Shown: positions 20-64,000, counted from the first letter of the stretch. The stretch is DNA of 64,000 nt from Malacoraja senta (GCA_038087875.1 CM075988.1:16742001-16806000), one strand, 5' to 3'. The notes: generated by a model from the sequence alone, not told the origin. Numbers and translations are program-made.

Positions 20-213
20 ACAGAAAGGAATTGCAGATGCTGGTTCATACCAAAGTTAGACACAACGTGCTGGCTGGAGTGGGTCTCAGGCAGCATCTCT
101 GGAGAAAAAGGATCAGTCTCAGAAAGGGTTTCGACCCGAAACGTCACCTATCCTGTTTCTCCAGAGACGCTGCTGACCCACTGAGTCACTCCAGCACTTT
201 GTGTCTATCTTCA
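20..213. mobile_element. Short PLE-derived unit, inverted pair, degenerate hammerhead motif
   Basis: Family motifs gaattgcagatgctgg / gggtttcgacccgaaacgtcacc / ctgagtcactccagcac; flanked by direct repeat aatcaaaatgt (9-19, 214-224). Confidence 0.75.
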
Positions 214-692
214 AATCAAAATGTCACCTGTTGCGGACAGCAAAACCGCATCTCCTAGGTGGTGGCTTTTTCTGAACTGATTACCGAAGCTTAATCCAAA
301 TCAGACAAAAAAATGGGAGCATGTCCACCAACACAAGCCTCCTGCGAGAGCTTAGGATATAAATGTTACTGGGCCCTGCCTCCGTCTAACCAACAATGAC
401 AGGCAAATCCCCTCAAGCTGCTGTGGCCAGTCCTCCTGTCATCTGCAGGCAGTTGATGGCTCTTTTGGTGTGTCCCTCCTTTGGATCACTCCCCCATGAT
501 GGATGGGGCAACATTTACATTCCACGAGCCTTTCAGACTGATAGGATACAAATTATTCATTTGTCACAGCTGCTGCTCAGGCAAGCAGGCCCATATTCCA
601 CCAGCTGCCACTGCACTCTGCATCTCTGGTGTTCTTTCTGAAGTGCTGGATATTAGACAGTAATTAGATTTAGGAAGAGAAATAAGTCCATC

Positions 693-706
693 ATCGCCAT
701 GGCAAC
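693..706. promoter_or_regulatory. Candidate RFX X-box
   Basis: ATCGCCATGGCAAC versus palindromic consensus GTTGCCATGGCAAC, inside a repeat-free stretch. Confidence 0.3.
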
Positions 707-1668
707 CAGAGGAGGGTTCATAATTCATACGGTCCCTGGGAGAACTAGCGAGCCTGTGAAACCCAGAACCCTGACTCGTACAGAGACATGGAGATGGATA
801 GCGGTCGTGGTGGGAGGTGGGGAGGTGGGGGGGGAGGATATCAGGCTGATTAATAATGATGGGAGGGAGGGAGGGGGGGGGGACAGCAAAATATCTGGAC
901 ATCTCCCTACATTAGGGAGGCAGGGAATGCAATTTCTGATAAGGAACCTCGGCAAGAGGGAGCAGTGAAGGAAATCCTGGCTGCTTTCTCCTGAGCATAC
1001 ATGGGTGATTAGAACAGGTATCTGAATTATAAGGTGGAAAGTTTTTAAAGAATCATCAAGGATGTGACTGTATTGTGAGTGCATATCAATGTTGTTATCT
1101 TTGATGCAACCAAGTCATGAAAACCCCACAGGCAGGGAAACCGTTCTCCTGACACAACATTCCCAGCTGCACGGGAGAAAATTCCTCAGCTATTAAACTG
1201 CTTAAAGTTACACTGAGGAGCACAAAGGGAACCAACAGCCATTTTAGCTTGCCTCCCTCATGTCGTGGGTTTTGCTAACACTAGTGGGCTTCATTGCAGG
1301 CCTATCTCCCCTCCCCCGCCACCCACCAGAGCCATAAATCACCATCATCCACTTTTAGGGGGAAGACCCATGTGTCAATAACCTTTCAACAAACACCTGT
1401 CCCACAATAGCTTTTAAAATTCCTTTCCTCCACCTCGGTCCAAGGATATGGGCTTCAGTCACTGCTGTTCCGTGCGGTACAACTCAGCAGTGGTTCATTT
1501 AGTTTGCTTTAGATTTTACTGAGTCGGACTTGTGTAGGGGAGAGGCCACTCACTCAACATGGTCAAGCACTTTGTGTCCTTTTGTGTAAACCAGCATCTC
1601 CAGTTCTTTGTTTCTACATTTTAACCGCACCCCTGCAAAATCTCCACGAGATACGCTTACTTTGAAGA

Positions 1669-1800
1669 ATCTGAAGAAAGGTCCCAAATCGAAACGTCAC
1701 CTATCCATATTCTCTGGAGTTGCCGCCTGTCCCCCTGAGTTACTCCAGCACTTTCTGTCTTTTTGTGTAAACCCGCATCTGCAGTTCCTTATTTCTACAT
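1669..1800 (+). mobile_element. Short PLE-derived unit (degenerate hammerhead)
   Basis: ctgaagaaaggtcc...gaaacgtcacc...gagttactccagcac...gcatctgcagttcc. Confidence 0.7.
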
Positions 1801-2269
1801 GGTCAGATACTTATTGTTGGACCTTCCACTGAAGTGCATCCTCTCTGCTATCTGCCTTCTGCAATTTTACTTACTCCTAGCTTCAATATTCATGCAGGGA
1901 TTTACCCTTTAAACATGAATAAACAGCAAAGTTGAGAATCTTCCATTCTCCTCAGTAATGCTTAATGCAGTTCACTTCTCTCCCTCTGTTTCTGCCTTGC
2001 CCAAGTCATTAAATGCAACTGGTCTTGGGAACTGTGTTGTCAATGCTCCATGGATCAAAATGAAACATCAAACATAGAAAAGTACGGCTCAGGAACAGGC
2101 CCTTCGGCCCACATTGTCTGTGCTGGCCATAATGCTGAAATAAACCTATCTCATCGGTCTGCACATGATCCATCTCCTCCATTCCATTCTTATCCATGTT
2201 CCTCCTCATATTGTAACATTGCTCTTATCTGTGCCATGACTGGGGTGAAGTATCACCGTAACGTGAGGG

Positions 2270-2358
2270 ACACAAAAAGCTGGAGTAACTCAGTGGGACA
2301 GGCAGCATCTCTGGAGAGAACGAATGGGTGACGTTTCGGTTCAAGACCCTTCTTCAGA
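2270..2358 (-). mobile_element. Short PLE-derived unit
   Basis: gctggagtaactcag...gggtgacgtttcggttcaagacccttcttcag is the reverse complement of the family motif. Confidence 0.7.
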
Positions 2359-3690: not shown

Positions 3691-3819
3691 TTTAAGAAGG
3701 AGTTGCAGATGCTGGATAATCAAAGGTAGACAAAAATGCTGGAGAAACTCAGCGGGTGCGGCAGCATCTATGGACCGAAGGAAATAGGCAACGTTTTGGG
3801 TCGAAACTCTTGTTCAGAC
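3691..3819 (-). mobile_element. Short PLE-derived unit with 13-bp TSD
   Basis: Family sequence flanked by attggtgagggtg (3678-3690, 3820-3832). Confidence 0.85.
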
Positions 3820-4457: not shown

Positions 4458-4476
4458 CGTACAAACTCCGTTCTCC

Positions 4477-5500
4477 GTTCCGGAAGTGGCGGCGCTGTCG
4501 TACAGCAGCGGCTCGCCTGCAGTCCGTCTGTTTTTACTTTTTTTGTTGTTTTCTTTTATCCTGTTTCAGCTAAATTTTAGTTTATTGGGTTGTGTATGTG
4601 TGGGGTGGGGGGGGTGGGGGGGTGAAACATGACTTTTGTCTCTTCCTTCGGGGGAATGCGACTTTTTCTTGTCGTGTCCCCCTTCTCTGCCTCCGTCTGC
4701 GCTGAGGCCAAAATGGCGGAGCTGCCGGCCTCCAACTCCAACTGCGAGCGACCGACCGACCTCGAGGCTCCGGAGGCAGAGCCAGGACTTACCAGCGCGA
4801 GGCTGGCCAACTTCGGGGCTGTGGTGGCATTCTGGCGGTGGCGGTGGCGTTCCGGCGGTGGCGACCGAGGACACTGGTGGCGACCTGAATCCGGAGGCTC
4901 GGCCGCGGGCCCGGTGGACGACATCTTCGGGAGCGCGAGGCTGGCCGGCTTCGGGGCTGCGGTGGCGTTCCGGCGGTGGCGGTGGCGTTCCGGCGGTGGC
5001 GACCGAGGACACTGGTGGCGACCTGAATCCGGAGGCTCGGCCGCGGGCCCAGTGGACGACATCGTCGGGAGCGCGCAGGTCACAGGTTGGTGACCTGTTT
5101 TTCTGGGGCTCCCGCAACTACAGCTGCGTCCGCTGGATTGGAGGGCGGCAGCTTCGGCAGCTTCGACCACCCCGGGCCGCGGAGTTTGAACCGGCCCGTC
5201 GCGGAGCACGGATTCGGCCGCTGGACTGGCTTACCGTCGCCCGGCGGGGCCACAGCATCAGAAGCCTGGATCGCCTCAGCGCAGAGGGAGAAGAAAGCGG
5301 GAAGAGACAGAGACTTTAAGACTTTTGCCTCCATCACAGTGAGGAGGTACCTGGTGAAACTGTGGTGGATGTTAATTTGTGTTTATTGTGTGTTTTGTCA
5401 TTTATTGTTATATGTATGACTGCAGGCAACGAAATTTCGTTCAGACCGAAAGGTCTGAATGACAAATAAAGGAATCTCTAAATCTCTAAATCTCTAATCT
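4477..5500 (+). mobile_element. Young GC-rich non-autonomous retroposon inserted into a SINE
   Basis: CpG-rich body; 138-bp tandem repeat; 3' hairpin TTCAGACC-GAAA-GGTCTGAA, AATAAA and (ATCTCTAA)n tail; the host SINE is split around it. Confidence 0.75.
4794..5075 (+). repeat. 138-bp tandem repeat, two copies
   Basis: agcgcg starts at 4794, 4932 and 5070; near-identical units. Confidence 0.9.
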
Positions 5501-8001: not shown

Positions 8002-8052
8002 CTGATGACAGTTCAATTGCACAAGGCCAAGTCACCCAGCCTGAAATATCTT

Positions 8053-8325
8053 TAGTTTCAGTTTAGTTTAGTTTCGGGAAACAGCACGGAAACAGGCCCT
8101 TCGGCCCACCGAGTCCATGCCGACCAGCGATCTCCGTACACTAGCACAATCCTACACGCTAGGGACAATTTATGATTTTTATTGAAGCCAAATTTGCCTA
8201 CAAACCTGTACATTTTTGAAATGTGAGAGGAAACCCGAGCACCTGGAGAAAACCCACACAGTCACAGGAAGAATGTACAAACTCCGTACAGACAGCAGCT
8301 ATAGTCAGGATCAAACCCGGGTCTG
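8053..8325 (-). mobile_element. V-SINE
   Basis: (TTTAG)n tail, aaacaggcccttcggcccacc, V-domain reverse complement. Confidence 0.85.
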
Positions 8326-9555
8326 TGGGGGTCCTTGGGGTGACCATGGGGAATTGGGGATACTCTGTAAACAGGGTTATCTGCACAATGAGTGAATCGG
8401 GAATCGAGTGTGAGAGTGAGAACACAGACAAAGCAGTTGTGAAATGCAGAGCAGGAAGATTACTGGCAGATCAGGCTGGGCATGTCATCCACTCCCCGTG
8501 GAAAACAAGGAATAACAGGATGGAAAAAACCAAGGTGGGCCTATATCATGGATGGACGACATACAGGCTGGGAAGTTATTCTTGCAATGGGCCTGATTAT
8601 AACAGTGCAGGAAACAGCAGACTGATAGGGAAGAGTGGAAGTGGGATGAATTAAAGAGTCAAGGAACGGGAAGCTTTGGACTGAAAGTTGGTAGTTGGCA
8701 AAGTGATCTGCGTTTGGTACCTTCAACGTAGAAGAGACCACATCTTGAACACCAGGTGATTGGATTCCAACACCATTGGACTGGAAGCAGCTGAACACCC
8801 ATTTTGCTGCCAGGATGGTGAAAAGGGGAGAACAGAAGTCTCGTATCATCCGCAGATGCAGGGCAAAGTGCCACGAGAAGCAAGCGGTAGTGAGAATGCA
8901 AGAGTTGACCGGGGAGTCGCAAAATGAACAGACCTTGCGAATGCTAAAAGGAGAGGAGAGGAGAGGGAAAGAGGTGCCTGGTGTTGGAATCTCTTTCAAT
9001 GTGGTATCAACCGCGGAGAATGATGTGTTGAATGCAGAGCTCGGTGGGGTGGATGATGGATGATGAACGGGGGAACTCTGTTCTTGTTCTGTCACGGAGA
9101 AGAGGAGCCGAGAGCAGTGGTGCAGGAAGAGTTTCGTTAACGATGGTAGAGGAGGAGCTGTTGTCCAGGAAGAAGTTTTGGAACAAATACGACGGAGATT
9201 GAGGAACTGGAAGAATGGAATGGAGTCGTTACAGAAGGAAGGGTGGGAGGTCGAGTGGTTGAGATAGTTGTGGGAGCCAGTGGGCTTATCAGGGTTATTA
9301 GTAGCTAGCCTATCACTTGAAGGTGGAGAAGGTAGAAAGATACAGAAAAAGAAAGAACGATTCTGAGATGTGATGGTGAGGGATGGAACTTGGTAACAAA
9401 GGTAATAAAATCTGTACAGGAGGCAGCACCAAAGTAGTCATTGATATAATGGGAAAAGAGTTGAAAGTGTGTTCCTGAGTAAGACTGAAACAAAGTGTCC
9501 AATATATCCCACAAGAAGACAAGCGGAGCTTGGGCGTATACGAGTGCTGACAACT

Positions 9556-10357: not shown

Positions 10358-10529
10358 TGTGATAAAGGACTGGACCAATGCAGAGAGGATAGAATCAGGG
10401 TAGGAGGAAATAAAATTGAGTCTGCAAGATCAGCCTGAAAAGGCTTTGGGGAACCAAACACAGTCTGGGGGTGGGGGGTGACGGCTTTGTGGAATATCAG
10501 CATTAGGCCCACAGGGAGCTTCCCATTCA

Positions 10530-10890
10530 CTGCCATTTCACTTCCCCATCGCTCTCCCACTCTGACCTATTTGCAATGGCCTCCCACATTGTTACAATGA
10601 GATCCAATGCAGGCTTGAGAAACAACATCCCATCATTCACCAGGGTACATTGCAGCCTTTTGGACCCAATATTGAATTCCACAACTTGAGGTAATCTGAT
10701 TTCTCGGTCTGTATCCGCCCTCCATCTGTCATGTTGGCTCAGCTTGCCTCTGTATTTTTCCTTTATTTTCTCTCTGGAGGTGGAGGACACACATATGTGT
10801 GATCTCACTCTCCAAGTGCTCCCATTCACTCATTGCTCTCTTCCTACGGTTGCTGCCTGGCTTGCTGACTATTTCCGATGGTTCTGCGTT
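10530..10890 (+). mobile_element. Inverted PLE terminal segment (GIY-YIG C-terminus and pseudo-LTR relic)
   Basis: ...aatattgaattccacaacttgaggtaa resembles NIEFSQF at the end of the 53436 ORF; opposite orientation to the adjacent PLE body. Confidence 0.55.
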
Positions 10891-11224
10891 TTTATTTTAA
10901 ACTGCTGCTACTTTAGCCTACTTCAATCTGAAGCGAGAGGCACTGATCAAAGGTTTCCGAAATTTTCAGACGAAAGAATGAAGGAGGTGACAAAAACCAC
11001 AGTCGAAGTCCTTGAAAAAAAATAACTGCAGAAAACGTGGCTATTTAGTTCAGACTAGGCTTCAGCACAGAGGTTGAATGAGACTGATATTGTCAGTAAG
11101 TGTTACTTAATCGGTTTGTCAGCAATACTTCCATTGTGGATATGAAATATGAAAAATTTGAAAACAGAAATCAATAGACGTGAATTGACTTTAATGCCAC
11201 CAGTAAAACTATTTTAGCTGATAA

Positions 11225-11790
11225 GATTAAGAGTTTTGATTTGTCATATGCACTGGATATGAATCGGAACAATGAAATTCAGCTCTCTAGGCATATTAAA
11301 GGCATCAATAAACATGAGTAGGAAAGAACTGCAGATGCTGATTTAAATCGAATGTAGACACAAAATGCTGGAGTAACACTGGAGAGAAGGAATGGGTGAA
11401 GTTTGGGCTCGAGACACTTCTTCGGACAATAAACATGAAATAAGTTACCAGTTATTCTCGGTAAACTAGATCATGCTAGAGCAAGTACAAAAATACCTAG
11501 AGCAATCATAGCAATGCAAGGTTCGTAGTAGTTCGGTGCTGAGGTAGGGTTGTGGTTAGGGTTTGTGCAGGGTGGTTCAAGAACCTCGTGTTCAATGGGA
11601 AGAAGCTGTGTTTAAACCTGGAGGCAACAATTCTCAGGCTCCTTCAACTTCTTCCCCATGGTAGTGGCCATGGTGGTGAGGGACTTTGATGACATTAGCT
11701 GCCTTCTTGAGGCAGTGCTTCCTGTAGATCCCTTCGGCGTTGGGGAAGTCAATACCCATGATGAACCAGGAAGTTGCGGCAATCACGCTG
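11225..11790 (-). mobile_element. Rex/Babar LINE 3' fragment containing a PLE unit (11318-11426)
   Basis: ORF fragment DFPNAEGIYRKHCLKKAANVIKVPHH; the PLE unit is flanked by TSD caataaacatga. Confidence 0.7.
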
Positions 11791-14309: not shown

Positions 14310-14545
14310 AAAGATAGACGCAAAATGGAGGAGTAACTCAATGGGTCTGGTAGCATCTCTGGAGACAAAGCATAGATGATGAATCGGGTTGGGACCCGTC
14401 TTCAGATGCTTCCCAATCTGAAGAAAGGACCCGGCCCGAAACGTCACCTATCCTTTTTCTCCCGAGATGCTGCCTGATCCGCTGAGTTACTCCACCATTT
14501 TGTGTCGACCTTTGGTATAAACCAGCATCTGCAGTTCTTTGTTTC
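14310..14545. mobile_element. PLE-derived inverted pair with hammerhead motif
   Basis: Minus copy 14310-14406 followed by plus copy ctgaagaaaggacccggcccgaaacgtcacc. Confidence 0.8.
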
Positions 14546-16549
14546 GATATCTTCGCATTCATCCTGCTTAGTTAGACTGGAAAAAAAAAAGTAATGCAAT
14601 TGTATTTCTCAACATCTGTGTGATAATGAATGCAACCAGTGTATCATTATGAAGACTCTGCCCTAGTCTAAGAGCAACAAGGATCAGATTGAATTCATGA
14701 TTTGTGTGCCTGCTGGCTAAAGCCTAGCTCCGAACTAACGGCACTTGGGGTGGGCAGGGGGGGGGGGGGGGGGGATCTCTATACTTGCATTCCTGCAAGT
14801 ATAGAGATCAAAATCACCTGAAATTGAACCCTCGTTTGCTTGCCCTCATCAAAGGCTTGATAAAATAATACTGCGGAGTTCTCTGTAACGAGAATGAATG
14901 GCAATTGACAAATGAACTTTGCTACAGGTGAAAAAATCTGTGCTGCCACTGAAATCTCATGCACCAGTGCATAGACGTGGACAAGTATGACTTAATATCA
15001 GCCCACACAAACAAGAGATGAAATAAGCACGTGGCTGCCATGAGATGCCAATATCTGTGATTTTCCAGATCCTTTTAGACAGAGCAATCCAGTGAAAGAA
15101 ATAGGTTCCTCGCCTGAATGAGCTCAATTGATTGTCCCAAACATGTTGTACTTCACATTACAACCTGAGGACTAATTGCAGGTAATTCATTCTGAGGTTT
15201 TACACCAGACTCAGAAACAGTGTGGGGATGTTTTCCTGGTCACCTTCTCTCGGTAGCATTATATGTCCCATATATTCACATCAGTGGATTGTGAAACAAA
15301 CGTCATTCCATTGAAATCACGGCCTGCATTTCAGGATGGTCATAAGAGCCTATGAGGCGGAAGGCCAGCAGGCTCTTCAAGCCTTCTCCTCTGTGAACCA
15401 TGTTCACTGGTCCAATGTTGTTCTCATCACACCTTTCCCCCTCTATCCCTTGACTCCCTTGGATTACAATCAGTCACACCCTCTCAGGAAATACATTTTT
15501 CCACATCTGTGTCTTAAATGTATTGCAATTCCATCATCTAGGAAGCTTTTGGATATGTCGGAAATTGGGGATATGGATCACGTGCAGACAGAGGAGATTA
15601 GTTTAACTTGGCATCAAGTTTAGCACAGACATTGTGGACCAAAGGGCCAGGTCCGGTGATGTGCACTTCTATATTGCATGTTCTAAACTGATGACCCTGT
15701 ATTCTGAAAATATGAGCCCTTGTACTAGTAACCCCAACATCACTGTGAGTATCCATTGTGTTCATTCTCCTTAGAATCTTATGTTTCAGTAAGATCATCT
15801 CTCATACGTTTAGACACCAATAAGTATCGGCCCAACCTACTTAACATCCTTCACACGTCAACCTCTTCATTCTAAGAATCGACCTTGTGAATCTTCTCTG
15901 CATGGCTTCCAATGCAAATAAATCCTTCTTTATTGTTGGAGACCGTACACAGTACTCCACATGCCACCTAAGCTGTGCTGTGTAAAAGTTGCCTGCCAAC
16001 GTACCTACTTTTATACTCCACGCCCCTTACAATGAAGTCCAATGTTCCAGTATTAAGCAATCCTTTAGGAGACCCTCTCTCAGGTTGGTCAGGCAGATCT
16101 GTTGATGAATGATGTTGGTCGCTGTGCGCCCTAACTGTTGAAATTTGATCCATTGGATTTAAGTGAAAACAAACTGCAGGGAGAACTCAGTGGAGCAGGC
16201 AGTATCTGTGAATCGAAATGGACAGACGATGTTTCACATCGGGACTCTTCAGCAGACTAATGGAGCAGAGGGGAGATGGTTGGTAGATTAAAGTGAGGGA
16301 AGAGGTGAGGCAAGAGCTAGCAACTGATGAAGCAAGGTGAGAACGTTTTAATTTCAAGATGAGTCAGGCGGGGGGAAAAGGGTGGAGATGATACCCAAAT
16401 CTGGAGGTGATAAGTGGTTTAAAGCGTGACACTGGTGTCTGGGTCTAAGGAGCACCATTCTTAAGGGACATAAACTAATTTAACACCCACTCTTGGCTCG
16501 ATTGCATTTGTTAAATAGAGCACCAATTATCAAATGAGCCAGGTAAATT

Positions 16550-18139: not shown

Positions 18140-18720
18140 AGGTTGTCAGTTCAAATATCATCCAAGAGTCTCAATGTAAGCTTCCAATACCACGTGCGAC
18201 TGCAGGAGTGCCACATTGTTGGAGGAGCCATATTTTTGAATGAATCATTAAATCAAGCCCATATTTACTCCCTAAACATAGACAATCCGAACAACCCTAT
18301 GCCAAAGAAAACTATTAGAGTTAGCCCAGTGATCAGTCAGATATTTATTCTTCATCTAACATCACTTAGCAATGTAGAAACAAGAAACTGCAGATACTTG
18401 TTTACAGAAAGAGATACAAAAGGCTGGAGTAACTCAGCAGGTCAGGCAGCATCCGTGAAGAATATGGATAGGTAACATTTCGGGTCAGGACCCTTCTACA
18501 GTCCGAAGAAGAGTCCTGACCCGGAACGTCACTTATCCATATTCTTCATGGATGCTGCCTGACCTGTTGAATTACTCCAGAACTTTGTATCACTCAGCAA
18601 TGAACTGGTCTTAACATCCATCTGTTGCTAGCATCTCACTGTTCAGAAATACTTCAATGGCCTTAAAGCACACCGGAGTGCCCTGAAGTTGTGAAAGACT
18701 GTGTAGAAATGCAGCTTCTA
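18140..18720 (+). mobile_element. Ancient Deu-domain SINE relic interrupted by a PLE pair
   Basis: ggagtgccacattgttggaggagcc...gatatttattcttcatctaacatcac...gtgaaagactgtgtagaaatgcagc. Confidence 0.5.
18375..18588. mobile_element. PLE-derived inverted pair with TSD
   Basis: Fold-back arms; flanks atcacttagcaatg / atcactcagcaatg. Confidence 0.8.
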
Positions 18721-20620: not shown

Positions 20621-20759
20621 CCTTGCCCTTCCATATCTCTAGTCTCATGCTCTCCTGACTCTCAGTCTGAGGAAGGGTCTCGACCCGAAACGTCACCCAT
20701 TCCTTCTCTCCAGAGATGCTGCCTGTCCCGCTGAGTTACCCCAGCATTTTGCATCTACT
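20621..20759 (+). mobile_element. Short PLE-derived unit with TSD
   Basis: TSD actaaataca (20611-20620, 20760-20769). Confidence 0.8.
20665..20698 (+). ncRNA. Minimal hammerhead ribozyme motif
   Basis: GT-CTGAGGA-A-GGGT(CTCG)ACCC-GAAAC-GTC-AC. Confidence 0.7.
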
Positions 20760-21841: not shown

Positions 21842-21951
21842 TAAGATTAAGATCAATCTGAGGAAGGGTTTCGGCCCGAAACGTCATCTATTTCCTTCGC
21901 TCCATAGATGCTGCCTCACTCGCTGAGTTTCTCCAGCATTTTTGTCTACCT
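21842..21951 (+). mobile_element. Short PLE-derived unit with 14-bp TSD and intact hammerhead core (21856-21887)
   Basis: TSD atgatattaacgtt (21828-21841, 21952-21965); CTGAGGAAGGGTTTCGGCCCGAAACGTC. Confidence 0.85.
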
Positions 21952-23049: not shown

Positions 23050-23298
23050 AAAATACAAAGTGCTGAAGCAACTCAGCGAGTCAATCAGCATGACTGGAGG
23101 TAATGGATGGGAGACTTTTCGGGTCGGGACTTTTCTTCAGAGGCTGAAGAAGTGTCTTGAAAAATCGCCTCTCTCTCTCTGAAGAAGGTCCGACTTGAAA
23201 CGCCGCCAATCTTTTCCCCCCCACAAATGCTGCCTGACCTGCAGTATTACTCCAGCACTCTGTCATAAGACTCCAGCATCTGCAGTCCCTTGTGTCTC
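23050..23298. mobile_element. Degenerate PLE-derived inverted pair
   Basis: Family motifs on both strands. Confidence 0.65.
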
Positions 23299-28530: not shown

Positions 28531-28832
28531 TGGATAGAATACACAGGCAGACCTTTTCTCAAGGGTGAAATATCAAAGACTAGAGGGCACAGCTTTGAGA
28601 AGGGAGGGGCAAAGTTTAAAGGAGATGTGCAAGGCAAGTATTTTTTGTACAGAGTGTGCGGAGTGCCTGGAATGTGCTGCCAGGGGTGGTGGTGGAGGCA
28701 GATACGATGGTGGCATTTAAGATGCTTTTCGGTAGACACGAGGATATGCAGGGAATGGAAGCAACGGACAACGTGCAAGCCAGGGAGATTTGTTGAACCT
28801 GGTCTCATATTTGGCATGGACATTGTGGGCTG
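28531..28832 (+). mobile_element. CR1 LINE 3' fragment
   Basis: SKTRGHSFEKGGAKFKGDVQGKYF motif. Confidence 0.75.
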
Positions 28833-29087
28833 AAATTGACTTCTCCAATTTCCGTTAGCCCTTGCTGTCTCCTCCCCTTCTCAGCTCTCCCTCAGCCCTC
28901 TGGCTCCTCCTCTTCCTTTCTTCTTCCCGCCCCCCCCCATCCCCACCCTGCATCAGTCTGAAGAAGGGTTTCAGCCCGAAACGTTGCCTATTTCCTTCGC
29001 TCCATAGATGCTGCCACACCCGCTGAGTTTCTCCAGCAATTTTGTCTACCTTCGATTTTCCAGCATCTGCAGTTCCTTCTTGAACAC
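28831..29087 (+). mobile_element. PLE 3' end with hammerhead motif (28956-28988)
   Basis: IDFSNFR* ORF end, pyrimidine-rich UTR, CTGAAGAAGGGTTTCAGCCCGAAACGTT, family tail. Confidence 0.85.
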
Positions 29088-34234: not shown

Positions 34235-34299
34235 CAGTAATGTTGTCAGCTCTCAGCAATCGCCAGAAACAGCCTTACAAGCTACAGTTTAAAGGCAGG

Positions 34300-38335: not shown

Positions 38336-38524
38336 TAAACAACAAAAAAGTAAAATTATGTAGTGCAAAAACAAAACACACAGCACAAAGACTCAAGTGC
38401 AATCAAGGCGGTTTGTAGTTTGGAGTTTAGTTGGAGTTCACAGTGTTCAATAACCTAATGGTAGTTGGGAAGGAACTGTTCCTGAACCAGGACATTACAG
38501 TTTTAAGGCTCCCCCTAAGACATA

Positions 38525-38678
38525 GAAACAAGTAAGTGCAGATGCTGGTTTACACCAAAGATAGACACAAAGTGCTGGAGTAACTCAATAGTTCAGGCAG
38601 CATCTCTGGAGAAAAGGACAGGGACTCTGGAGATGCTGCATGACCCTCTGAATTACTTCAGTTCTTTGAGTCTATACC
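38525..38678. mobile_element. PLE-derived inverted pair (hammerhead core deleted)
   Basis: gctggagtaactca...cagcatctctggag then gagatgctgc...aattacttcag. Confidence 0.6.
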
Positions 38679-43544: not shown

Positions 43545-44082
43545 AATTTAGTTTTGGTTATTATCATGTGTACCGAGGTACAGTGAAACGCTTTTGTTGC
43601 ATGTTAACCAGTTAGCAGAAAGACAATACCTGATTACAATCGAGCCCTCCACAGTTGACAGATGCATGCTAAAAGGAATAATGTGAATAACGCTTAGGCA
43701 AGATAAAGTCCAGTACAGTCCGATCAAAGATAGTCCGAGGGTCTCCAATGAGATAGATAGTAGCTCAGAAATGCTCTCTGTTTGTTGGTAGGATGGTTCA
43801 GTTGCCCGATAACAGCTGGGAAGAAACTATCCCTGAATCTGAAGGTTTAAGAAGGAACTGCAGATGCTGGAAAATCGAAGGTAGACAAAAATGCTGGAGA
43901 AACTCAGTGGGTGAGGCAGCATCTATGGAGCGAAGGAAATAGGCAACGTTTTGGGTCTGAAGAAGGGTTTCGATCTGAAACGTTGCCTATTTCCTTCACT
44001 CCATAGATGCTGCCTCACCCACTGAGTTTCTCCAGCATTAATGTCTACCCTGAATCTGAAGGTGTGTGTTTTCACACTTCAT
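43545..44082 (-). mobile_element. Rex/Babar 3' end hosting a PLE insertion
   Basis: Host sequence resumes colinearly after the insertion. Confidence 0.75.
43847..44047. mobile_element. PLE-derived fold-back unit with 16-bp TSD
   Basis: TSD ccctgaatctgaaggt (43831-43846, 44048-44063); about 70-bp inverted arms. Confidence 0.9.
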
Positions 44083-48954: not shown

Positions 48955-49412
48955 CAGACACAAGAAACTGCAGGTGCTGGAATCTTGAACAAACACAGGG
49001 CTTCGTGAACTCAGTGGATTAGGCAGCATCTGTGGAGAAACGATCAGATGATATTTCGGGTTGGGGCCTTTCTTCAGACTCATCATTCCCTCCACAGATG
49101 AAGAGACAAGAAATTGCAGATGCTGGTTAATACATTAAAAAGAGATAGAGTGTGTAGGAAGGAACTGCAGATGCTGGTTTACACAAAGATAGACACGAAA
49201 TGCTGGAGTAACTCAGCGGGACAGGCAGCATCTCTAACGTTTCAGGTCGAGATCCTTCTTCAGACCTTCAGTGATGCTGCCTGTCCTGTTGAGTTACACC
49301 AGCATTTTGTTTCTATCTAAAGGACACAAAGTGCTGGACTAACCCAGCAGGTCAGGCTGCATCTCTGACGAACATGGATTGGTGACGTTCCGGGTCAAGA
49401 CCCTTTTTCAGA
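48955..49412. mobile_element. Cluster of nested PLE-derived short units
   Basis: At least three family copies, one as an inverted pair (49150-49318). Confidence 0.75.
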
Positions 49413-50090
49413 TATACTTGTTGATATCTTTTTCAGATATACTTTAGACATACTCGTATCCAGTTGGCTAACATGAATTCCTTGGACTTCCAGTTGGCGA
49501 TGGGGGTTAGGGAAGGTGGATGTTTCAGACAACCAGTACCCGAGGAGGAGGAGGGACAGGGGACATGTGCTGAAACCTCCGAGACTATCAGTGTCCAAAC
49601 TGTGTGAAAAAATAGTGCTCGCCACTCCGCTCCAGCAGCCATCCACGTGAGAGGGGAGAAAAATATGATAGCTCATGGATTGAAATTCGCTATTTTGAGA
49701 AATAAGAAAGATTCTGAGCAGAATGATAGCAATGCCTATAATTTATGTTGAAATCTATAATCTATAATTAAATGTGTGTAGCTTATTGTTGTTCTCCTCC
49801 AAACCTGATGGGGTCATGGTGTTTTTGGAGGCTTTACTTCTAAACTTCTATTATTATTTTGTTCTTTAGTAGATCCCATTTATTTGCTCTCTGTAAGGAT
49901 GGTATTAACAGGCATGCGCACTCAGCGGGCTTGAGGGAAACAAATAGACCTTCCCAAAAGGTGAAATGGAGCTTCACCTGTTTTAGTACCTGGAAATATA
50001 ACTGGCCTGACAGGTTGATGCAGAGGCTGTTTGCTCTTGTTGGTGAATCTAGACCCAGGGAGACATAGGAACAGTCTGAATACGGGTCCC

Positions 50091-53446: not shown

Positions 53447-53855
53447 CCCTTGCAACCGCAAGAGATGCAACACTTGTCCCTTCACCTCCCCCCTCCACTC
53501 CATTCAAGGACCCAAGCAGTCGTTCCAGGTGCGACAGAGGTTCACCTGCATCTCCTCCAACCTCATCTATTGCATTCGCTGCTCTAGATGCCAGCTGATC
53601 TACATCGGTGAGACCAAGCGGAGGCTTGGCGATCGTTTCGCCGAACACCTCCGGTCAGTCCGCAATAACCAACCTGAACTCCCGGTGGCTCAGCACTTCA
53701 ACTCCCCCTCCCATTCCGTATCTGACCTCTCTGTCCTGGGTCTCCTCCATGGCCACAGCGAGCAACACCGTAAATTGGAGGAAATGCACCTCATATTCCG
53801 CTTGGGCAGTCTACATCCTGGTGGCCTGAACATTGAATTCTCCCAATTCTGCTAG
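53447..53855 (+). pseudogene. PLE Cys-rich linker and GIY-YIG endonuclease domain, uninterrupted frame
   Basis: PCNRKRCNTC...FTCISSNLIYCIRCSRCQLIYIGETKRRLGDRFAEH...VAQHFN...GLNIEF; the apparent ATG at 53436 comes from the TSD. Confidence 0.85.
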
Positions 53856-53969
53856 CCCTGGCTGTCCCCTCCCCTTCATCAGCCATCTGGTTGTCTCCTC
53901 CCCTCCCCCAGCCCTCGGGCTCCTCCTCCGCCTTTTCCTTTTTTCCTTTCTTCTCCCCACCCCCTATCA

Positions 53970-54002
53970 GTCTGAAGAAGGGTTTCGGCCCGAAACGTTA
54001 CC
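53970..54002 (+). ncRNA. Minimal hammerhead ribozyme motif
   Basis: GT-CTGAAGA-A-GGGT(TTCG)GCCC-GAAAC-GTT-AC. Confidence 0.7.
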
Positions 54003-55020
54003 TATTTCCTTCGCTCCATAGATGCTGCTGCACCCACTGAGTTTCTCCAGCATTTTTGTGTACCTATGATTTTTTTATTGACTGTTTTCCCATTACCCCG
54101 GCCTTAATAAGATCATTTATATTGAACGTTGAGTGAATAACCATCTAAACCCCTGGTGATTTGGATGCAGTCGTAGGGACTGTTTATACTTTGATACCTC
54201 TAATTGTCTTCACTTCCAATCAACCACAGCACATTAAAGATCAGCAAGTTGCGTGGTTTTAAATTAGTGAAATTGACTTGAGACCGACCAGTTTGGTGAC
54301 TGTGTAAATACACAGAAACACATTAAGAAGAAGGATTGCCCACGGCTGTGCCCACCTTCCCCCATCTGTATAATTAAAGAACAACACGGAGTGATTTACT
54401 CACTTGTCGTCGTCTTTGGCCTAATATTCTCAGCTTCTACTCATACCTGGAACCCCTCCAATACCACAGGCTGTAGCTGACCTACATACATTTTGCAACA
54501 ACTCTGTCCACTTGGAGATCAGCGGAGGGTGCTTTGAACTGCACAATGTGCCAAAGGCAACCAAGCCGGGAACTGGCCAAACCAGCTGATGCAACTTGCA
54601 AAATGCGACAGACAGTTTTAAAATAATTATCACACGCCGCACTTTCCCCCCAAATATTTCCTTGGACACATCCTTCCAACCACAGAGACACGCGCAGAAA
54701 CTGACTTGGGAAAACAATCAGGAAAAAACTACTGATGACAAAACTGGAAAGGATAACATGTGAGCAAAATATCAGTGGGACGAATGGTTTTAAGGAGCAG
54801 CTGTAAGGAGAAGGAAGTAGGGAGGGGTTAAGGGTAAAGCGGCCAGTTCCAGAATGTAGGTTAATGGTCGATGGCAGCACAGATAGTAAATTGTATTGTC
54901 ACTGAGGGTGCACAAGAACTCTGCTCAGATTTAAGTTAATTGGGAAGTGGTGAAGATGTTATTTTCACCCAATGTAATGATGGGGCTTGTCTGAAAGGGT
55001 GGTGGTGGTCAAGAACCAGA

Positions 55021-55281: not shown

Positions 55282-56567
55282 AAGTACCAGGGTGAGCACT
55301 TAAAGAGCCATAAAACAGGCCCTTCGGCCCACTGAGCCCACGCTACCACCGATCACCCATTCACACTTGTATTCCCATTTTCATAATGATCGGGCTTTTA
55401 CATCAAGCTGATTGTCTGGGAGAAGATGAGAATCAGCCTGGGCTACTGAACCCGGAAACCATCCCTGGAAAGAGCACAGCTGAGGGCAGTCTGCTCACTT
55501 TAAGAAGTTGTTGTATAATTGAACATGATGTGGGATGTGTGTTCATGGAACTGTTCAACATGACAAAGAGTTGTGGTATCTCAAGTCTCTTCTCACCATT
55601 ACAAAGGCGTCATTAGCACTAATGATAAAGAGTAGGCGGTGGAGGACGATTAACACATTTGGTTCTTTCCTCAACATTGAACAAGGTCAGCTCTTTCTGC
55701 TGCACAAACCAACAACTTATCCACAATATATATATTTTTTAACTGATAGACATAAAAGTGCAATTTATTGCAGAACATCGCAGGTTCTGAAATGTGTAAT
55801 GCTGAGGTGCTGGGGAGTGTACGCCAGGCAGCTTGGAGGGCAGATTGCCTTCTGCTGCCAGTAACCGTGTGATGAGGAGCCGAGGGTAGAAGGGGAGAGG
55901 CTGGAGGTTGGTCGAGTCCCAGTGAAGTCTGATCTAATCCCACGTTCCAGATTGCAATGGGAGGCCAACTAATTCCCCCGTTGCAACTGTCGGTGATATT
56001 GACAGAACAATTATATTTGGAAGAGGCAGCAGGATATGCTATGATACGATAAGCTTTCTTCATCCACGGAGGGAAATCACAACACAAGGTACACAAAAAT
56101 TTGAAATTACAAGTGAAAAAAAAGAAAAGGACACGCGACTGTTGGCTGGCTGCCGTGTGCACAGCGGCTAAACCGGAACGAACGAACAAACAAACAAACA
56201 AGGCAGCAATTCACCCTTGCAAATGGTTCAGGCAATTTTCCTCAGCTATGGAACTAACCACCTCATGGTAATTGTCAGAATACCTGACAACTGCTTTGCT
56301 GCACCAGGGTCAGAACAGAAAATTGTAAATTGTCCATAGTGTGTGTAGGATTGTGTTAGTGTGCGGGGATCGCTGGTCGTTGCGGACTCAGTGGGCCAAA
56401 GGGCCCGTTTCCACCCAGTATCTCTAAAACAAACTAAAAAAGCTAAACCAAAGAGTCCCGACCCAAAACGTCATCTGTCCATTTCCCTCCACAGATGTTG
56501 CCTGATCCGCTGAGTTCTCCCAGCAGTTTGTGGGTGCTTTGATCGGCCTAGAGATAGTTCTGAAGAA

Positions 56568-56855
56568 TCAGTCTGAAGATGGGTCTCGACCCAAAACGTC
56601 ACCCATTCCTTCAGCCACAGGAGTGCCATTCCTTGGCTTCCACGACAGTTATCCCAATAATCCCATTCCCAATCCCTTTATTTCTCTTCATCTGCAACTT
56701 ATTCTCTCTTTATCTCACATGCCCATCAAGAAGGGTCTCGACCCAAAGCGTCACCCATTCCTTCTCTCCAGAGATGCTGCCTGGCCCACTGAGTTACTCC
56801 AGCATTTTGTGTCTATCTTCGATTTAAACCAGCATCTGCAGTTCCTTCCTTCACA
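56568..56855 (+). mobile_element. PLE unit with duplicated hammerhead core and captured filler
   Basis: gggtctcgacccaaa.cgtcacccattcctt occurs twice around a roughly 115-bp filler. Confidence 0.7.
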
Positions 56856-58842: not shown

Positions 58843-59023
58843 TGACTAAATGGTGTGGAGCAAAGTGGCCACTGAAGGATTCCCTTATAATAATCAGGGA
58901 CAAATGTTCTCCCATATCAGGAGCCAGTCAACAGTTGTTGTCTTTAGTGCGCTACTAATGGCCATGTATCGCTGCACGCCAGCATCTTTGGCATGGCGAT
59001 AACATATCCAAACAAATCATTCA

Positions 59024-59266
59024 AAGGTAGACAAAAATGCTGCAGAAACTCAGCAGGTGAGGCAGCATCTATGGAGCGAAGGAAATAGGTGACATTTTGG
59101 GTTGAGACCCTTCTTCAGACTGATGTGAGGAAGGGTCTGATGAAGGGTCTCGACCCGAAATGTCACCTATTCCTTTGCTCCATAGATGCTGCCTCACCCG
59201 CTGAGTTTCTCCAGCATTTTTGTCTACCTTCAATTTTTCCAGCATCTGCAGTTCTTTCTTAAACAT
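59024..59266. mobile_element. PLE-derived fold-back unit; canonical CTGATGA core at 59137
   Basis: Inverted arms; flanks acaaatcattca / acaaatgattca. Confidence 0.85.
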
Positions 59267-59414
59267 ACAAATGATTCATATCATTGCTTTTACTGAGATC
59301 TTGCTGTTCATATATCCCTCAGTTGGATTATTGGCTTTCAATGCTGCCATTTATAAGGAAAAAAACAAAGGTTTCTCTGACCTAGTATTGAACATTTCGA
59401 GAGTATTGCAATAG

Positions 59415-59866
59415 ACAAAACAAAAATTTGTAACACTGCCCAGTCCATCATCGGCTCTGACCTTCCTTCCATCGAGGGGATTTATCACAGTCGCTGCCTT
59501 AAAAAGGCTGGCAGTATCATCAAGGACCCACACCATCCTGGCCACACACTCATCTCCCTGCTACCTTCAGGTAGAAGGTACAGGAGCCTGAAGACTGCAA
59601 CAACCAGGTTCAGGAATAGCTACTTCCCCACAGCCATCAGGCTATTAAACCTGGCTCGGACAAAACTCTGATCATTAATAACCCATTATCTGTTATTTGC
59701 ACTTTATCAGTCTATTTATTCATGTGTGTGTATATTTATACAATGGTATATGGACACACTGATCTGTTTTGTAGTAACTGCCTACTATGTTCTGTGTGCT
59801 GAAGCAAAGCAAGAATTTCATTGTCCTATCAGGGACACATGACAATAAACTCGAACTTGAACTTGA
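59415..59866 (+). mobile_element. Rex/Babar LINE 3' end
   Basis: AQSIIGSDLPSIEGIYHSRCLKKAGSIIKDPHHPGHTLISLLPSGRRYRSL; (GAACTT)n tail. Confidence 0.9.
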
Positions 59867-60989: not shown

Positions 60990-61203
60990 TGTGTAAGAAG
61001 GAACTGCAGATGCTGGTTTAAACCGAAGATAGACACAAAAAATTGGAGTAACTCAGCGGGACAGGCAGAATCTCTGGAGAGAAGGAATGGGTGACGTTTC
61101 GGGTCGAGACCCTTCTTCAGTCTTGACCTGAAATGTCACCCATTCCTTCTCTCCAGAGATGCTGCCTGTCCCGCTGAGTTACTCCAGCTTTTTGTGTCTA
61201 CCC
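60990..61203. mobile_element. PLE-derived fold-back unit with TSD, nested in an old SINE (60794-61315)
   Basis: TSD aagtggagtt (60980-60989, 61204-61213). Confidence 0.85.
61089..61122 (-). ncRNA. Minimal hammerhead ribozyme motif
   Basis: Reverse complement reads CTGAAGAAGGGTCTCGACCCGAAACGTCACCC. Confidence 0.65.
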
Positions 61204-61401
61204 AAGTGGAGTTGATGGGCATGTGAGAAAAAGTTGCAGGAGAAGAGAGAAATAAAGGGATTGGGAATGGGGTTGATGGGATAACTGTCGTGGAAGCCAG
61301 CTGTGGGCTGAATGGAATTGTAAATATAAGATAAGGAAATATGTTTAAATTGATGAACAAATCACAAGAACAAACAAAACCTGTAGCTTTATAAATAGTC
61401 A

Positions 61402-61720
61402 TTTAGTTTAAGAGATGCAGCATGGAGTCAGGCCCTTCAGCCCACCAAGTCCACACAGACTACCGATCACCTGTTCATACTGGTTCTGTGTCATCTCACT
61501 TTCACATCCACGCCTACACATTAGGGGCAATGCTTCAGAGGCCAATTAACCCACAAACCCACACGTCTTTGGGGTGTGGGAGGAAACCAGAGCAGCCAAA
61601 GAAATCCACGCGATCACAGGGAGAACATGCAAACTCCACACAGACAGCACCTGAGGTCAGATTGAACCTAGGTCTCTAGCGCTGTGAGACTGAGACTCTA
61701 CCAGCTGTGCCACTGTGCTG
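61402..61720 (-). mobile_element. V-SINE
   Basis: Reverse-complement tail, V domain, head. Confidence 0.85.
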
Positions 61721-62595
61721 GCAAAGATCTAGTTTATTTTAATTTAGGTTATTACTGTCACGTGTACCGAGATACAGTGAAAAGCTTTTGTTGTGTGCTT
61801 TCCAGTCAAAGATAAGACTACATGTTTACATTCAAGCCATCCATAGTGCACAGATAAAGAATAAAGGGTACAGCATTTAACGCAAGATAATTACCAATGG
61901 AAATTTTTCCAAGCAGAGATCTGGGCTGGGAGGCTTGGAAACCTCTCCAGGTGAGAGACCTTTCATCGAGAAGTTAATGTTTTTTCATTGTATCCTCACC
62001 GCAAACATTTGAAAAAAAAATCAATTCTAACTCAAAGGCAATGGTGCAAGTGTTTGAGAAATATGGCAAGCATTCAGACAGCTCCTGGAAGGCAAAAAGG
62101 TGATCAATCTTGTTGTAGTCCATGTTCTAATCAAGTGAGACCAGCCTCTGAGTCTAGCCCCATGCATTCAGCAATACTTCTCAGTCCATTACCTTGTCTT
62201 TCTCCCTGTGTTTTCCCCAAGTCCTGACAGCCACCCAACCAAAATAAACTACCCACCAGCTAAGTCAATTGGCAATCTGCCATCTCCTTCTGCACCAGTT
62301 CAATTTGTTCTAACTCGTGATAGATCCTTCAAGGTCACTTAACCTCAAAAACCATCAACAGTATTTGCTAAATAATTCCTATCATTTTGCAGTTTTGTCA
62401 TCAGCTTTTATGAAATATCCAGACTTGGTACAACATCTGATTTATAAATGACTAAACAGTTGGACGTGGATAGGTGACTTATCTGATTGGAACCTTTCTT
62501 CAAAGTCTGAAGAAAGGTCCTGACCCGAAATGTAGCCAATTCATATCTTCCAGATATGCAGCCTGACCCATTGAGTTATTCCAGCACTTTGTGTC

Positions 62596-62912
62596 AATAG
62601 ACAATAGACAATAGACAATAGACAATAGACAATAGACAATAGGTGCAGGAGTAGGCCATTTGGCCCTTCGTGCCAGCACCGCCATTCAATGTGATCATGG
62701 CTGATCATCCCCAATCAGTACCCCGTTCCTGCCTTCTCCCCATATCCCCTGACTCCGCTATTTTTAAGAGCCCTATCCAGCTCTCTCTTCAAAGCATCCA
62801 GAGAACCTGCCTCCACCGCCCTCTGAGGCAGAGAATTCTACAGACTCACCACTCTCTGTGAGAAAAAGTGTTTCCTTGTCTCCGTTCTAAATGGCTTACT
62901 CCTTATTCTTAA
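62596..62912 (-). mobile_element. CR1 3' end with (ATAGACA)n tail, nested in a PLE unit (62505-62960)
   Basis: Tandem 7-mer tail 62596-62642; host PLE tail resumes at tttttgtaaacctgcatctg. Confidence 0.85.
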
Positions 62913-63138
62913 TGTCATTTTTTATTGTTCTTTTTTTGTAAACCTGCATCTGAAATGTCTTGTGTCTGGCTTTATTATGTGTAATACTGAGAGAATGCTG
63001 CACGATCAGAGATGCATCTTTAAGGCGAGGTATTACACTGAGGCCAAGCCTGCCTTCTGAGATGAGCTTTCAAAGAACAGCAATGACCTGGCTAAGATAG
63101 ACACAAAAAGCTGGAGTAACTCAGTGGGTCAGGCAGCA

Positions 63139-63408
63139 TAGAAACATAGAAAATAGGCCCTTCGAGCCAGCACTGCCACTCAATATCATCATGGCTGATC
63201 ATCCAAAATCAGTACCCCGTTCCTGCTTTTTCCCCATATCCCTTGATTTTGTTAGGCCTAAGAGCTAAATGTCACTCTCTCTTGAAAACATCCAGTGAAT
63301 TGGCCCCCACTGCCTTTTGTGTCAGGGAATTCCACAGATTCACAACTCTCTGGGTTAAAAGGCTTTTCCTCATCTCAGTCCTAAATGGCCTACCCTTATT
63401 CTTAAACT
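63139..63408 (-). mobile_element. CR1 3' end nested in a PLE unit (63095-63462)
   Basis: Host aggcagcat | gcatctc...ggtgacgtttcaagtcgagaccc is split by the CR1 sequence. Confidence 0.8.
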
Positions 63409-64000
63409 GCATCTCAGGATAAAAGGAATAGGTGACGTTTCAAGTCGAGACCCATCTTCAGAATCAGTCACAAAAACAGACTATTTGATCATTTTCACAA
63501 TACTTTTATTGAGAGTTGTCCGTACGTTGACTGCCACATTACCCAACTTATTTCTATCACTTTGAAGGTTCAATGGTGAAAATACAAATCAAGGTCAGGT
63601 CTACGGAGACTGCAGGTGCTGGAATCTTGAGGACAAAACAAAGTTCTAGAACTCAGCAGGCCAGGTAACATCTGCAGAGGGAAATGAACAGATGATGTTT
63701 TGGCTCAGGACCCTTCTTCAGTATGCCCAATGTTTCGTGCCAGACCCTTCTTCAGACTATAGATGGTGGAAGTACGGCTTACATTCAACAGAGTCACATT
63801 GTCCATGCTGACAGAGTTGCATTCTGGAATAGTCCTATTTGCCTTTATTTGGCCCATATCTCTCCAAACCATTCCTAGCCATATATCTGTCTATGTGTCT
63901 TTTGAAAGTCATAATTGTATCCATTTCTACAGGTTCTCTGGTAGTTTGTTCCAGGTATGGACTTCCCTCTGAATGAAAAAGTTGCCCCAGAGGTCCCTCT

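Follow-up and report, generated by a model that had tools for sequence, protein, structure and literature searches.

The short repeats in a 64,000-nucleotide stretch of Malacoraja senta DNA (the window, meaning throughout the whole stretch that was analysed) most probably are copies of the 3′ end of a Penelope-like element (PLE), made one by one through target-primed reverse transcription of uncleaved RNA and carrying a hammerhead motif as a passenger, a reading to which we assign a probability of about 0.7. They are likely to be ordinary truncated insertions and not a new circular-RNA family. A profile search (E≤0.01) recovered 45 arms spanning 3745 bp, or 5.9% of the window, and 0 arms in the reversed window used as a control; the arms group into 33 loci, which bears out the claim of an earlier note that more than 20 copies of a short unit were present. 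There was no strand bias (23 plus, 22 minus), and ten head-to-head inverted pairs were found. The unit corresponds to positions 536–640 of the PLE query, with copies extending further upstream by 46, about 140 and 525 nt in three cases, and most inserts are 110–215 bp long and without an ORF. Subfamilies diverge by 6–23% and are of several different ages. The skate genome measures about 2 Gb, and if the window is typical, 10^5 to 10^6 such stubs per genome are possible by extrapolation. The family may already stand annotated in Repbase or Dfam. Metagenome scans returned 0 DNA-pattern matches and confirmed 0 of 418 protein relatives, and no host gene was identified among the 149 of 216 candidate non-repeat frames scanned, which gave two sub-threshold Pfam matches.

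The repeat unit is the 3′ end of a GIY-YIG PLE, as seen in one longer copy whose parts are given here together with a remnant of a related element:

53447..54063, plus strand: 5′-truncated GIY-YIG PLE copy, 617 bp, with a 13-bp perfect target-site duplication (TSD) at 53434 and 54064
53447..53855, plus strand: open frame with Cys linker (Cx4CxxC) and GIY-YIG endonuclease (PF01541)
53856..53970, plus strand: pyrimidine-rich tract with CAG at its end (from sequence)
53970..54001, plus strand: minimal type I hammerhead motif, C3 at 53972 (published consensus, Cervera and de la Pena 2014)
8590..9551, minus strand: old, broken remnant of a related PLE running from RT to endonuclease (tblastn, queries P0004 and P0011)

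The 53447–54063 copy comprises, in order, the endonuclease end of the ORF, the pyrimidine-rich tract, the hammerhead and a 3′ module, without a tail; it lacks the RT, which lies upstream of the endonuclease in homologues of its ORF. This ORF matches PF01541 at threshold (22.9 bits, cut-off 22.6), and scores 76% to a Leucoraja erinacea protein and 60–66% to three shark or ray RT-EN-like proteins. Its GIY-YIG domain sits at the C-terminus and upstream of the terminal repeat, the arrangement by which an endonuclease-bearing PLE is recognised. The earlier note had rightly linked the unit to the 3′ end of a GIY-YIG PLE, but the copy that it took for the autonomous parent is 5′-truncated and retains only the endonuclease; within the 64-kb window we found neither a full-length RT-bearing parent nor a full-length copy in the partial-tandem pLTR-ORF-pLTR arrangement. 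Judged by its linker, which as Cx4CxxC shows the Cx2-5CxxC feature of the Neptune clade, the copy appears to be Neptune-type; the text available from PMC8557442 gives a Cys linker before the endonuclease as a Neptune rule and groups Naiad endonucleases with those of Neptune, so the linker alone is not exclusive to Neptune. The tract at 53856..53970 is 92% pyrimidine at −30 to −6 and, from its sequence, would resemble a 3′ splice site and also an initiator-like element.

The unit bears a minimal type I hammerhead motif in which helix III is possible only as a dimer, as had been claimed. At 53970–54001 the motif has an extra A, a 4-bp helix II, an ACGT palindrome and a 2-bp helix I, and the cut is predicted between 53999 and 54000. 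A strict core regular expression run over the window (positions reported as C3) matched five times, at 20667+, 21858+, 28958+, 53972+ and 61120− (the last core spanning 61093–61120), recovering all five core sites of the earlier note, the plus-strand ones within 2 nt. Its CTGATGA variant with GAAAT was also found, with C3 at 59137, and a further intact core at 43957 had been overlooked. The minus-strand core that it placed at 61089 and called intact has its C3 at 61120, has no helix I and is contained in a 214-bp inverted pair. With a minimal-hammerhead descriptor that omits helix I, the window yielded eight matches (mean 0.01, maximum 1, in 100 Markov-resampled windows), six of which keep a helix I of at least 2 bp. 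All 11 core bases are present in 14 of the 31 near-full arms, and helix II is also fully paired in seven; the palindrome at 15.2–16.2 reads CG in 18 of the 31 and TG or CA in ten more, the changes expected from CpG decay. With Rfam covariance models, neither the window nor 53900–54100 matched a hammerhead family at E≤10, which is expected since the motif is without helix III. The top Rfam matches were sub-threshold microRNA-type models on inverted pairs; for annotation, about 6% of the window consists of PLE stubs that look like microRNA precursors to Rfam.

Head-to-head pairs, tails and target duplications were overlooked earlier; loci at which they and single copies occur are listed here:

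20..210, both strands: head-to-head inverted pair, tail on minus arm only (TSD 6/211; fold)
3691..3819, minus: single insert, 129 bp with tail, decayed core, start 2 nt before C3 (13-bp perfect TSD 3678/3820)
11318..11426, minus: single insert, 109 bp, tail, internal deletion, start 1–2 nt before C3 (12-bp perfect TSD 11306/11427)
14310..14550, both strands: head-to-head inverted pair, plus-arm tail, end approximate (TSD not found; fold)
18375..18588, both strands: head-to-head inverted pair, 214 bp, degenerate minus-arm tail (TSD 18361/18589; fold)
20621..20751, plus: single insert, 131 bp, start 46 nt before core, intact core C3 20667 (TSD 20603/20752, 18 nt, 2 mismatches)
21842..21951, plus: single untailed insert of 110 bp, intact core C3 21858 (14-bp perfect TSD 21828/21952)
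23055..23295, both strands: old inverted pair, about 35 nt between arms, plus-arm tail, end approximate
28825..29086, plus: longer 5′-truncated copy that has a tail, the pyrimidine tract and an intact core (C3 28958), end approximate
38520..38674, both strands: short inverted pair without hammerhead core, minus-arm tail, start approximate
43847..44047, both strands: young inverted pair, 201 bp, arms 96% alike (16-bp perfect TSD 43831/44048); the plus arm holds the intact core 43957, with a 5-bp helix I made by the junction, predicted to be buried in the hairpin
48960..49415, both strands: four-arm cluster with one inverted pair (49185–49318) and duplicated tail pieces
56450..56855, plus: two subfamilies represented by three arms on the same strand within 400 bp, end approximate; none of the three has an intact hammerhead over a full unit
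59023..59266, both strands: inverted pair, plus arm with CTGATGA variant (C3 59137) and tail, minus arm continuing about 17 nt beyond the core, end approximate (fold)
60990..61203, both strands: inverted pair, 214 bp, minus-arm core C3 61120 without helix I, minus-arm tail (10-bp perfect TSD 60980/61204)
62468..62597, both strands: inverted pair with short minus arm, tail seen on neither arm
63407..63769, minus: decayed arms, short partial tandem of the core at 63723/63755

A TSD score of at least 10 was obtained at nine of the 33 loci (lengths 10–18 bp, four of them inverted pairs), a count that leaves aside two matches that are tail duplications and compares with 6/300 in the null; at the other 24 loci no TSD was found. 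The TSDs fix the PLE fragment at exactly 53447–54063 and the first insert at 20–210. A tail of about 35 nt was detected on 14 of 45 arms by regular expression and on 17 by eye, so both a tailed and an untailed 3′ end exist; by eye, nine of the ten inverted pairs carry it on exactly one arm and one pair on neither. The inversion junction is different at every inverted locus, and several junctions use microhomology in or beside a palindrome that has its centre at the base before C3. The alternative of a palindromic MITE driven by a master of its own was considered and rejected because all junctions differ and the ends carry the PLE tail. The predicted cut site is spanned by 39 of the 45 arms, and none of the 45 starts within 3 nt of it.

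By analogy with published PLE biochemistry, which comes from a Poseidon-clade element and not from Neptune and in which reverse transcription has two internal starts and both strands are cut and extended (PMC11167929), the endonuclease would nick both DNA strands 10–18 bp apart and RT would begin within the RNA, at either of two adjacent sites, making the tail optional. Priming from both nicks, one per start site, would give a head-to-head pair with a tail on a single arm. The RNA may start at the initiator-like element in the pseudo-LTR, and most cDNAs would end 1–4 nt before the core since this is where the template RNA likely begins; run-off copies of 100–140 nt would then arise by priming at the first start sites, and the rarer long copies would be products of read-through RNA. 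Tails, inversions and truncations of PLEs are on record in the text available from PMC8557442 and PMC3846280.

About 28 of the 45 arms start within roughly 6 nt of the first base of the core, which suggests that the template RNA begins just before it. Majority-base identity among the 31 near-full arms is 0.87 at −1, 0.55/0.58 at −2/−3 and about 0.4 at −4 to −6, and about six of these arms run on upstream, although the upstream sequence of old subfamilies was judged by pyrimidine content alone and some arms may extend beyond this count. In polyA reads from a related species, 545 reads turn into unrelated flanking sequence immediately ahead of 53970 (agreement 0.33), 1142 extend into the pyrimidine-rich stretch upstream and 751 go on into the tail. 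Sequencing runs X1, X2 and X5, presumed to be RNA, show presence only. There was no read-start pile-up at the proposed RNA start, a feature that fragmented polyA reads pooled over many loci show poorly. That transcripts might be spliced to the CAG ahead of the core, as in Drosophila virilis, has weak evidence against it: no GT..AG joint to 53971 occurs among the 15 of 50 joints listed, and no upstream exon is shared among the loose ends listed. It is possible, if somewhat unlikely, that the same PLE origin holds and the 5′ hot spot marks an RT stall or template-switch site, the RT pausing at the border of the structured hammerhead and pyrimidine tract, and two cDNA ends annealing through the short palindrome whose centre is the base ahead of C3. 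The microhomology at several inversion junctions and the arms that run on upstream agree with such a stall, and for rotifer PLEs the text available from PMC3846280 describes palindromes where inverted copies join; however, the non-inverted, TSD-flanked inserts at 3691–3819 and 11318–11426 also stop at −1/−2, without any partner arm.

Whether the motif acts as a ribozyme is a separate matter, and we consider it unlikely that it is merely hammerhead-derived, no longer catalytic in this lineage and kept as a promoter, splice or RT-binding signal. Several observations would suit such a loss. Helix I in native copies is 2 bp (GU with AC or GC), the third pair being an A-C mismatch in all five subfamily consensuses, and is longer only where an inversion junction supplies the bases. 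Helix II had been described as varying between subfamilies while staying paired; the variation amounts to one one-sided U-A/U-G change plus loop changes, with no two-sided covariation between the five consensuses. Its predicted probability is at most 0.06 in six of seven folded contexts, 104 of 120 cells are paired for a competing helix and 100 of 124 for helix II, a downstream block is invariant at 26 of 33 positions, and the catalytic dimer lies 13–27 kcal/mol above the free dimer in energy models that leave out Mg, tertiary contacts and protein. The polyA reads show neither a depth dip nor an end pile-up at the predicted cut, which is a weak test. Against these stands the core, invariant at 11 of 11 positions across the five consensuses compared with 53 of the 83 remaining ones (one-sided Fisher p=0.011), an outcome of the core-versus-flank comparison proposed in the earlier note that favours its claim. 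Both common changes displayed in the reads retain pairing with U, 2-bp helices I are on record for Culex, Drosophila virilis and Oikopleura (Cervera and de la Pena 2014, PMC4209133), and, indirectly, read-through in a zebra-shark PLE protein enters a frame compatible with this core. The head-to-head partner was rejected as a means of dimerisation, since it is antisense and a predicted long hairpin buries the core (6/6 folded loci). The hammerhead is likely kept by selection in active parents and would work there only as a dimer, probably with protein help, the scattered genomic copies being predicted to be mostly silent; in the Poseidon system cleavage is dispensable and protein-assisted (PMC11167929).

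A dedicated short master RNA would account equally well for the sharp 5′ peak, which is unlike the outcome of random truncation. We nevertheless regard as doubtful a non-autonomous, SINE-like mini-PLE whose short masters would transcribe only hammerhead and tail and borrow the PLE protein. Read depth in the related species is about 4500–5400 over the unit and at most 640 over the endonuclease, an excess of about 8-fold or more that such masters would explain together with the sharp 5′ boundary, and non-autonomous PLE derivatives are published for Chlamys in the text available from PMC8557442. Yet at least three subfamily groups have copies reaching the pyrimidine-rich upstream sequence, the youngest subfamily connects directly to the ORF, the 5′ ends spread over several bases, and no junction is common to any two inverted loci.

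The retrozyme-like family suggested earlier, in which tandem units would be hammerhead-cut to monomers, circularised and reinserted, draws on the type I motif and PLE link, on five same-strand core-bearing neighbours within 250 bp and on the proposal that such retrozymes are PLE derivatives, present in the one chondrichthyan surveyed (bioRxiv 10.64898/2026.07.22.740005), but it is highly improbable and, as far as this window goes, largely refuted, because tandem arrays are lacking (the unit is covered by 0 of 12 tandem-repeat rows, and no two consecutive head-to-tail units have complete hammerheads), no copy starts or ends at the cut, and 5′ ends and junctions are heterogeneous; moreover, copies are collinear with the PLE end and unpermuted, the close neighbours are decayed and of mixed subfamilies, and the motif is minimal instead of canonical. 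The nearest same-strand intact cores are 1191 bp apart and belong to different subfamilies.

We tentatively sketch a further scheme that is rather unlikely to hold in all its parts: the transcript would start 1–4 nt before the hammerhead, internal priming 100–140 nt downstream would mass-produce run-off stubs, the conserved competing helix would restrain the ribozyme until dimerisation or PLE protein binding, and later cleavage would clip off the capped first 30 nt of the RNA. If true, the start site of a Neptune-type PLE would be preserved in the stubs as a fossil map, and they would rank among the densest hammerhead populations of any vertebrate. What the hammerhead does for PLEs is treated as open in PMC4209133, PMC11167929 and the available text of PMC8557442. 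This family offers natural read-outs in its copies uncleaved at the cut site, its tailed/untailed arm pairs and its fixed stop before the core; these support internal two-site priming beyond the one Poseidon element studied in vitro and make testable the idea that the hammerhead is where the RNA starts.

As a motif, the ribozyme is not new, and most of the copies bear the published minimal form either matching or decayed. The minimal PLE hammerheads of Cervera and de la Pena 2014 (PMC4209133) have the same core (CUGANGAH, G10.1-C11.1), an extra nucleotide after A9, no helix III loop and a CG palindrome after GAAA, and are located downstream of the endonuclease; they too occur mostly as single motifs from truncated PLEs and as opposite-strand pairs, so that the ribozyme features do not retain the novelty first attached to them. 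The closest row listed there, an Acropora digitifera Neptune element, likewise has a 4-bp helix II, a 4-nt loop and a pyrimidine-rich upstream sequence, whereas none of the 56 motifs listed, from 40 species, belongs to a cartilaginous fish. Here helix I measures 2 bp (possibly 2+2 around a 2x2 loop) and there mostly 3–5 bp, and the density of eight motifs in 64 kb compares with about 4,000 and 9,000 per genome in coelacanth and Xenopus. Like animal non-LTR retrozymes (PMC7229834; bioRxiv 10.64898/2026.07.22.740005) the units are short, non-coding and PLE-related with a type I hammerhead, but those are head-to-tail tandems cut to monomers or circles, whereas the present units are dispersed, single or head-to-head and uncut across the site. 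With endonuclease-bearing PLEs (Penelope/Poseidon, Neptune), as described in PMC11167929 and the available text of PMC8557442 and PMC3846280, they share 5′ truncation, an adjacent inverted copy, a 30–40 bp one-end tail, TSDs and, at the C-terminus, GIY-YIG with Cys linker. A 5′ peak just before the hammerhead is not described in the text available from these three sources. The present TSDs are 10–18 bp, compared with 8–10 bp in the rotifer examples given in the text available from PMC3846280, and most inserts here differ from those elements in being ORF-less pieces of 110–215 bp whose 5′ ends peak before the hammerhead.

The short copies of the 3′ end of the GIY-YIG Penelope-like element (PLE), here called units or arms, form a genuine repeat family. 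With a unit profile built from 12 window copies and a threshold of E ≤ 0.01, we detected 45 arms (3745 bp in total) in the window, which were grouped into 33 loci; the same profile found no arms in the reversed window. A minimal-hammerhead descriptor gave eight matches in the window against 0.01 expected. The earlier note had claimed five intact hammerhead cores and one variant, and motif matching recovered all of them where it had placed them. These matches, positioned by the core reference base C3, and the longer PLE copies are as follows:

8590-9551 (-), broken remnant of a related PLE (RT, thumb and endonuclease), its 5′ end interrupted by another repeat
10477-10970 (+), very old PLE remnant in which a GIY-YIG trace is followed by an AG/GT resembling a splice donor where the ORF ends, then by a pyrimidine tract and a degenerate unit
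20667 (+), strict hammerhead motif
21858 (+), strict hammerhead motif
28958 (+), strict hammerhead motif
53447-54063 (+), 617-bp PLE fragment
53972 (+), strict hammerhead motif
59137, variant hammerhead motif
61120 (-), strict hammerhead motif

In alignment, the unit corresponds to the final 100 bases of the 617-bp fragment. The open frame of that fragment encodes a GIY-YIG domain together with a Cys linker; its closest relative is a Leucoraja erinacea protein (76%), with shark and ray proteins next, which makes a skate the likely host. This fragment is 5′-truncated, lacks the RT and carries a 13-bp duplication on both sides. At 10477-10970 the degenerate unit scores under the profile threshold, and its presence together with an ORF trace provides a link between an ORF and an older subfamily.

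Target duplications (TSDs) scoring at least 10 were found at 9 of the 33 loci (null, 6/300), a count that leaves out two further matches representing duplications of the tail, an extension of approximately 35 nt at the 3′ end of some arms. The TSD-bounded inserts measured 109-214 bp, plus one of 617 bp. Ten loci consisted of head-to-head pairs with an arm-to-arm likeness of 70-96%, no two of which had a junction in common. Tails were present on 14/45 arms by regular expression and 17/45 by eye; they were confined to exactly one arm in nine of the ten pairs and absent from both arms in one, a degenerate flank at 38625 being uncertain. Sorted by eye, 31 near-full arms fell into five groups, each diverging by 6-23% from its own consensus. 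By eye, the opening 2-4 bases of the duplication at loci 211, 3691, 18589, 20752, 44048 and 54064 often matched the bases with which the element would be expected to end, which suggests that microhomology may play a part in priming. The word CCAGCA occurs once ahead of the untailed end (54047-54052) and again inside the tail (e.g. 29060-29066); each of the two occurrences could base-pair with one and the same upstream arm, making a switch between two RT start sites possible. For an anole PLE, RT has been shown to initiate at two internal positions that define the tail, with cutting and extension of each of the two DNA strands, and hammerhead cleavage is dispensable and protein-assisted (PMC11167929).

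Arm 5′ ends peak immediately ahead of the core. Approximately 28 of the 45 arms (including four shortened at the 3′ end) start at roughly -6 to +4 relative to C3, and ten start further in. Identity among the 31 near-full arms was 0.87 at -1, 0.55-0.58 at -2/-3 and about 0.4 further upstream, although the drop at -2 may partly reflect a G/A variant; about six of the 31 continue by eye into pyrimidine-rich sequence, of which two pass an 80% cut. The boundary coincides with an initiator-like word, a signal resembling a 3′ splice site, and a short palindrome. In Drosophila virilis, the start site lies within the pseudo-LTR and helix I is where an intron ends (PMC2377424). We favour run-off, in which arm 5′ ends would form where synthesis reaches the 5′ end of the RNA, because non-inverted TSD-flanked copies stop at the boundary too. 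The main rival is stalling or template switching at this point, followed by copying from a dedicated short master; splicing into the boundary found no support among the RNA joints listed.

The earlier note's suggestion of a retrozyme-like family was not borne out. Animal retrozymes are described as head-to-tail tandems cut to monomers (PMC7229834; bioRxiv 10.64898/2026.07.22.740005), the latter survey counting tandem retrozymes in one chondrichthyan. None of the 12 tandem-repeat rows in the window covered the unit, the predicted cleavage site was spanned by 39/45 arms, and no arm (0/45) started within 3 nt of it; absent tandems and arms crossing the site uncut make retrozyme identity very unlikely for this window. 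Among 9526 polyA reads at least 85% alike from a related species (drawn from approximately 6% of the run), a weak test of cleavage, depth did not dip at the site, no pile-up was seen among the starts and ends listed, and the reads over the unit ran about equally in both directions. This pattern is what passive read-through of uncut copies would give. At the 5′ boundary the reads split as the arms do.

Core positions were invariant across the five consensuses (11/11 against 53/83 other positions, p=0.011) and all 11 bases were kept in 14/31 near-full arms, which counts in favour of selection on the hammerhead; the block downstream, invariant at 26/33 positions, counts against it. Indirect support for selection on the core comes from one of 20 proteins, a zebra-shark PLE protein whose frame continues through the 3′ region with a peptide sharing the core's frame. 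The two common changes among those listed in the reads, 53988 G>A (1962/4405) and 54000 A>G (3100/4660), both preserve pairing with U and also speak for selection. Further points against it are the absence of two-sided covariation between arm-group consensuses and a helix I of 2 bp. Pairing of the helix II 5′ strand with bases after the cleavage site was kept in 104/120 cells and helix II itself in 100/124, the predicted helix II probability was at most 0.06 in 6/7 folded contexts, and the catalytic dimer was predicted to lie 13-27 kcal/mol above the free dimer. A long hairpin dominated the predicted fold in all six inverted loci folded. An Rfam scan of the window returned no hammerhead match; the inverted pairs at 43902-44027, 59045-59210 and 61046-61184 gave sub-threshold microRNA-precursor-like matches (E 2e-7 to 5e-5). 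Such pairs probably give rise to spurious microRNA calls and to double-stranded RNA.

Self-repeats occupy 28% of the window. A second abundant family of approximately 300 bp, likely a SINE, has 15-19 self-matches (e.g. 8037-8328, 17257-17580, 33959-34254 and 46800-47143), and a GC-rich 138-bp tandem duplication (95% alike) lies within overlapping long open frames at 4794-5075. Open frames at 40526-40951, 50282-50584 and 59381-59671 presumably resemble LINE retrotransposon C-termini; a Pfam scan of the first two gave no match.

Look-ups by sequence and by place gave no match, and literature on Penelope elements in skates, sharks, chondrichthyans and Leucoraja yielded no description of the family, most matches being judged by listing and Repbase and Dfam lying outside the scope. 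The ribozyme features listed in the earlier note are not new, all being present in PMC4209133: PLE minimal hammerheads lack helix III, have a palindromic 15.2-16.2 and an extra nucleotide after A9, occur as single motifs from truncated elements and as opposite-strand pairs, and show weak cleavage restricted to dimers. The window motif agrees with the consensus reported there, its nearest row being the Acropora Neptune element; the 56 motifs from 40 species listed there include no cartilaginous fish. The window units likewise show the published marks of PLE insertion: copies are truncated, an inverted copy lies alongside, and a tail of 30-40 bp is present on one side (PMC8557442, PMC3846280 and PMC8969392).
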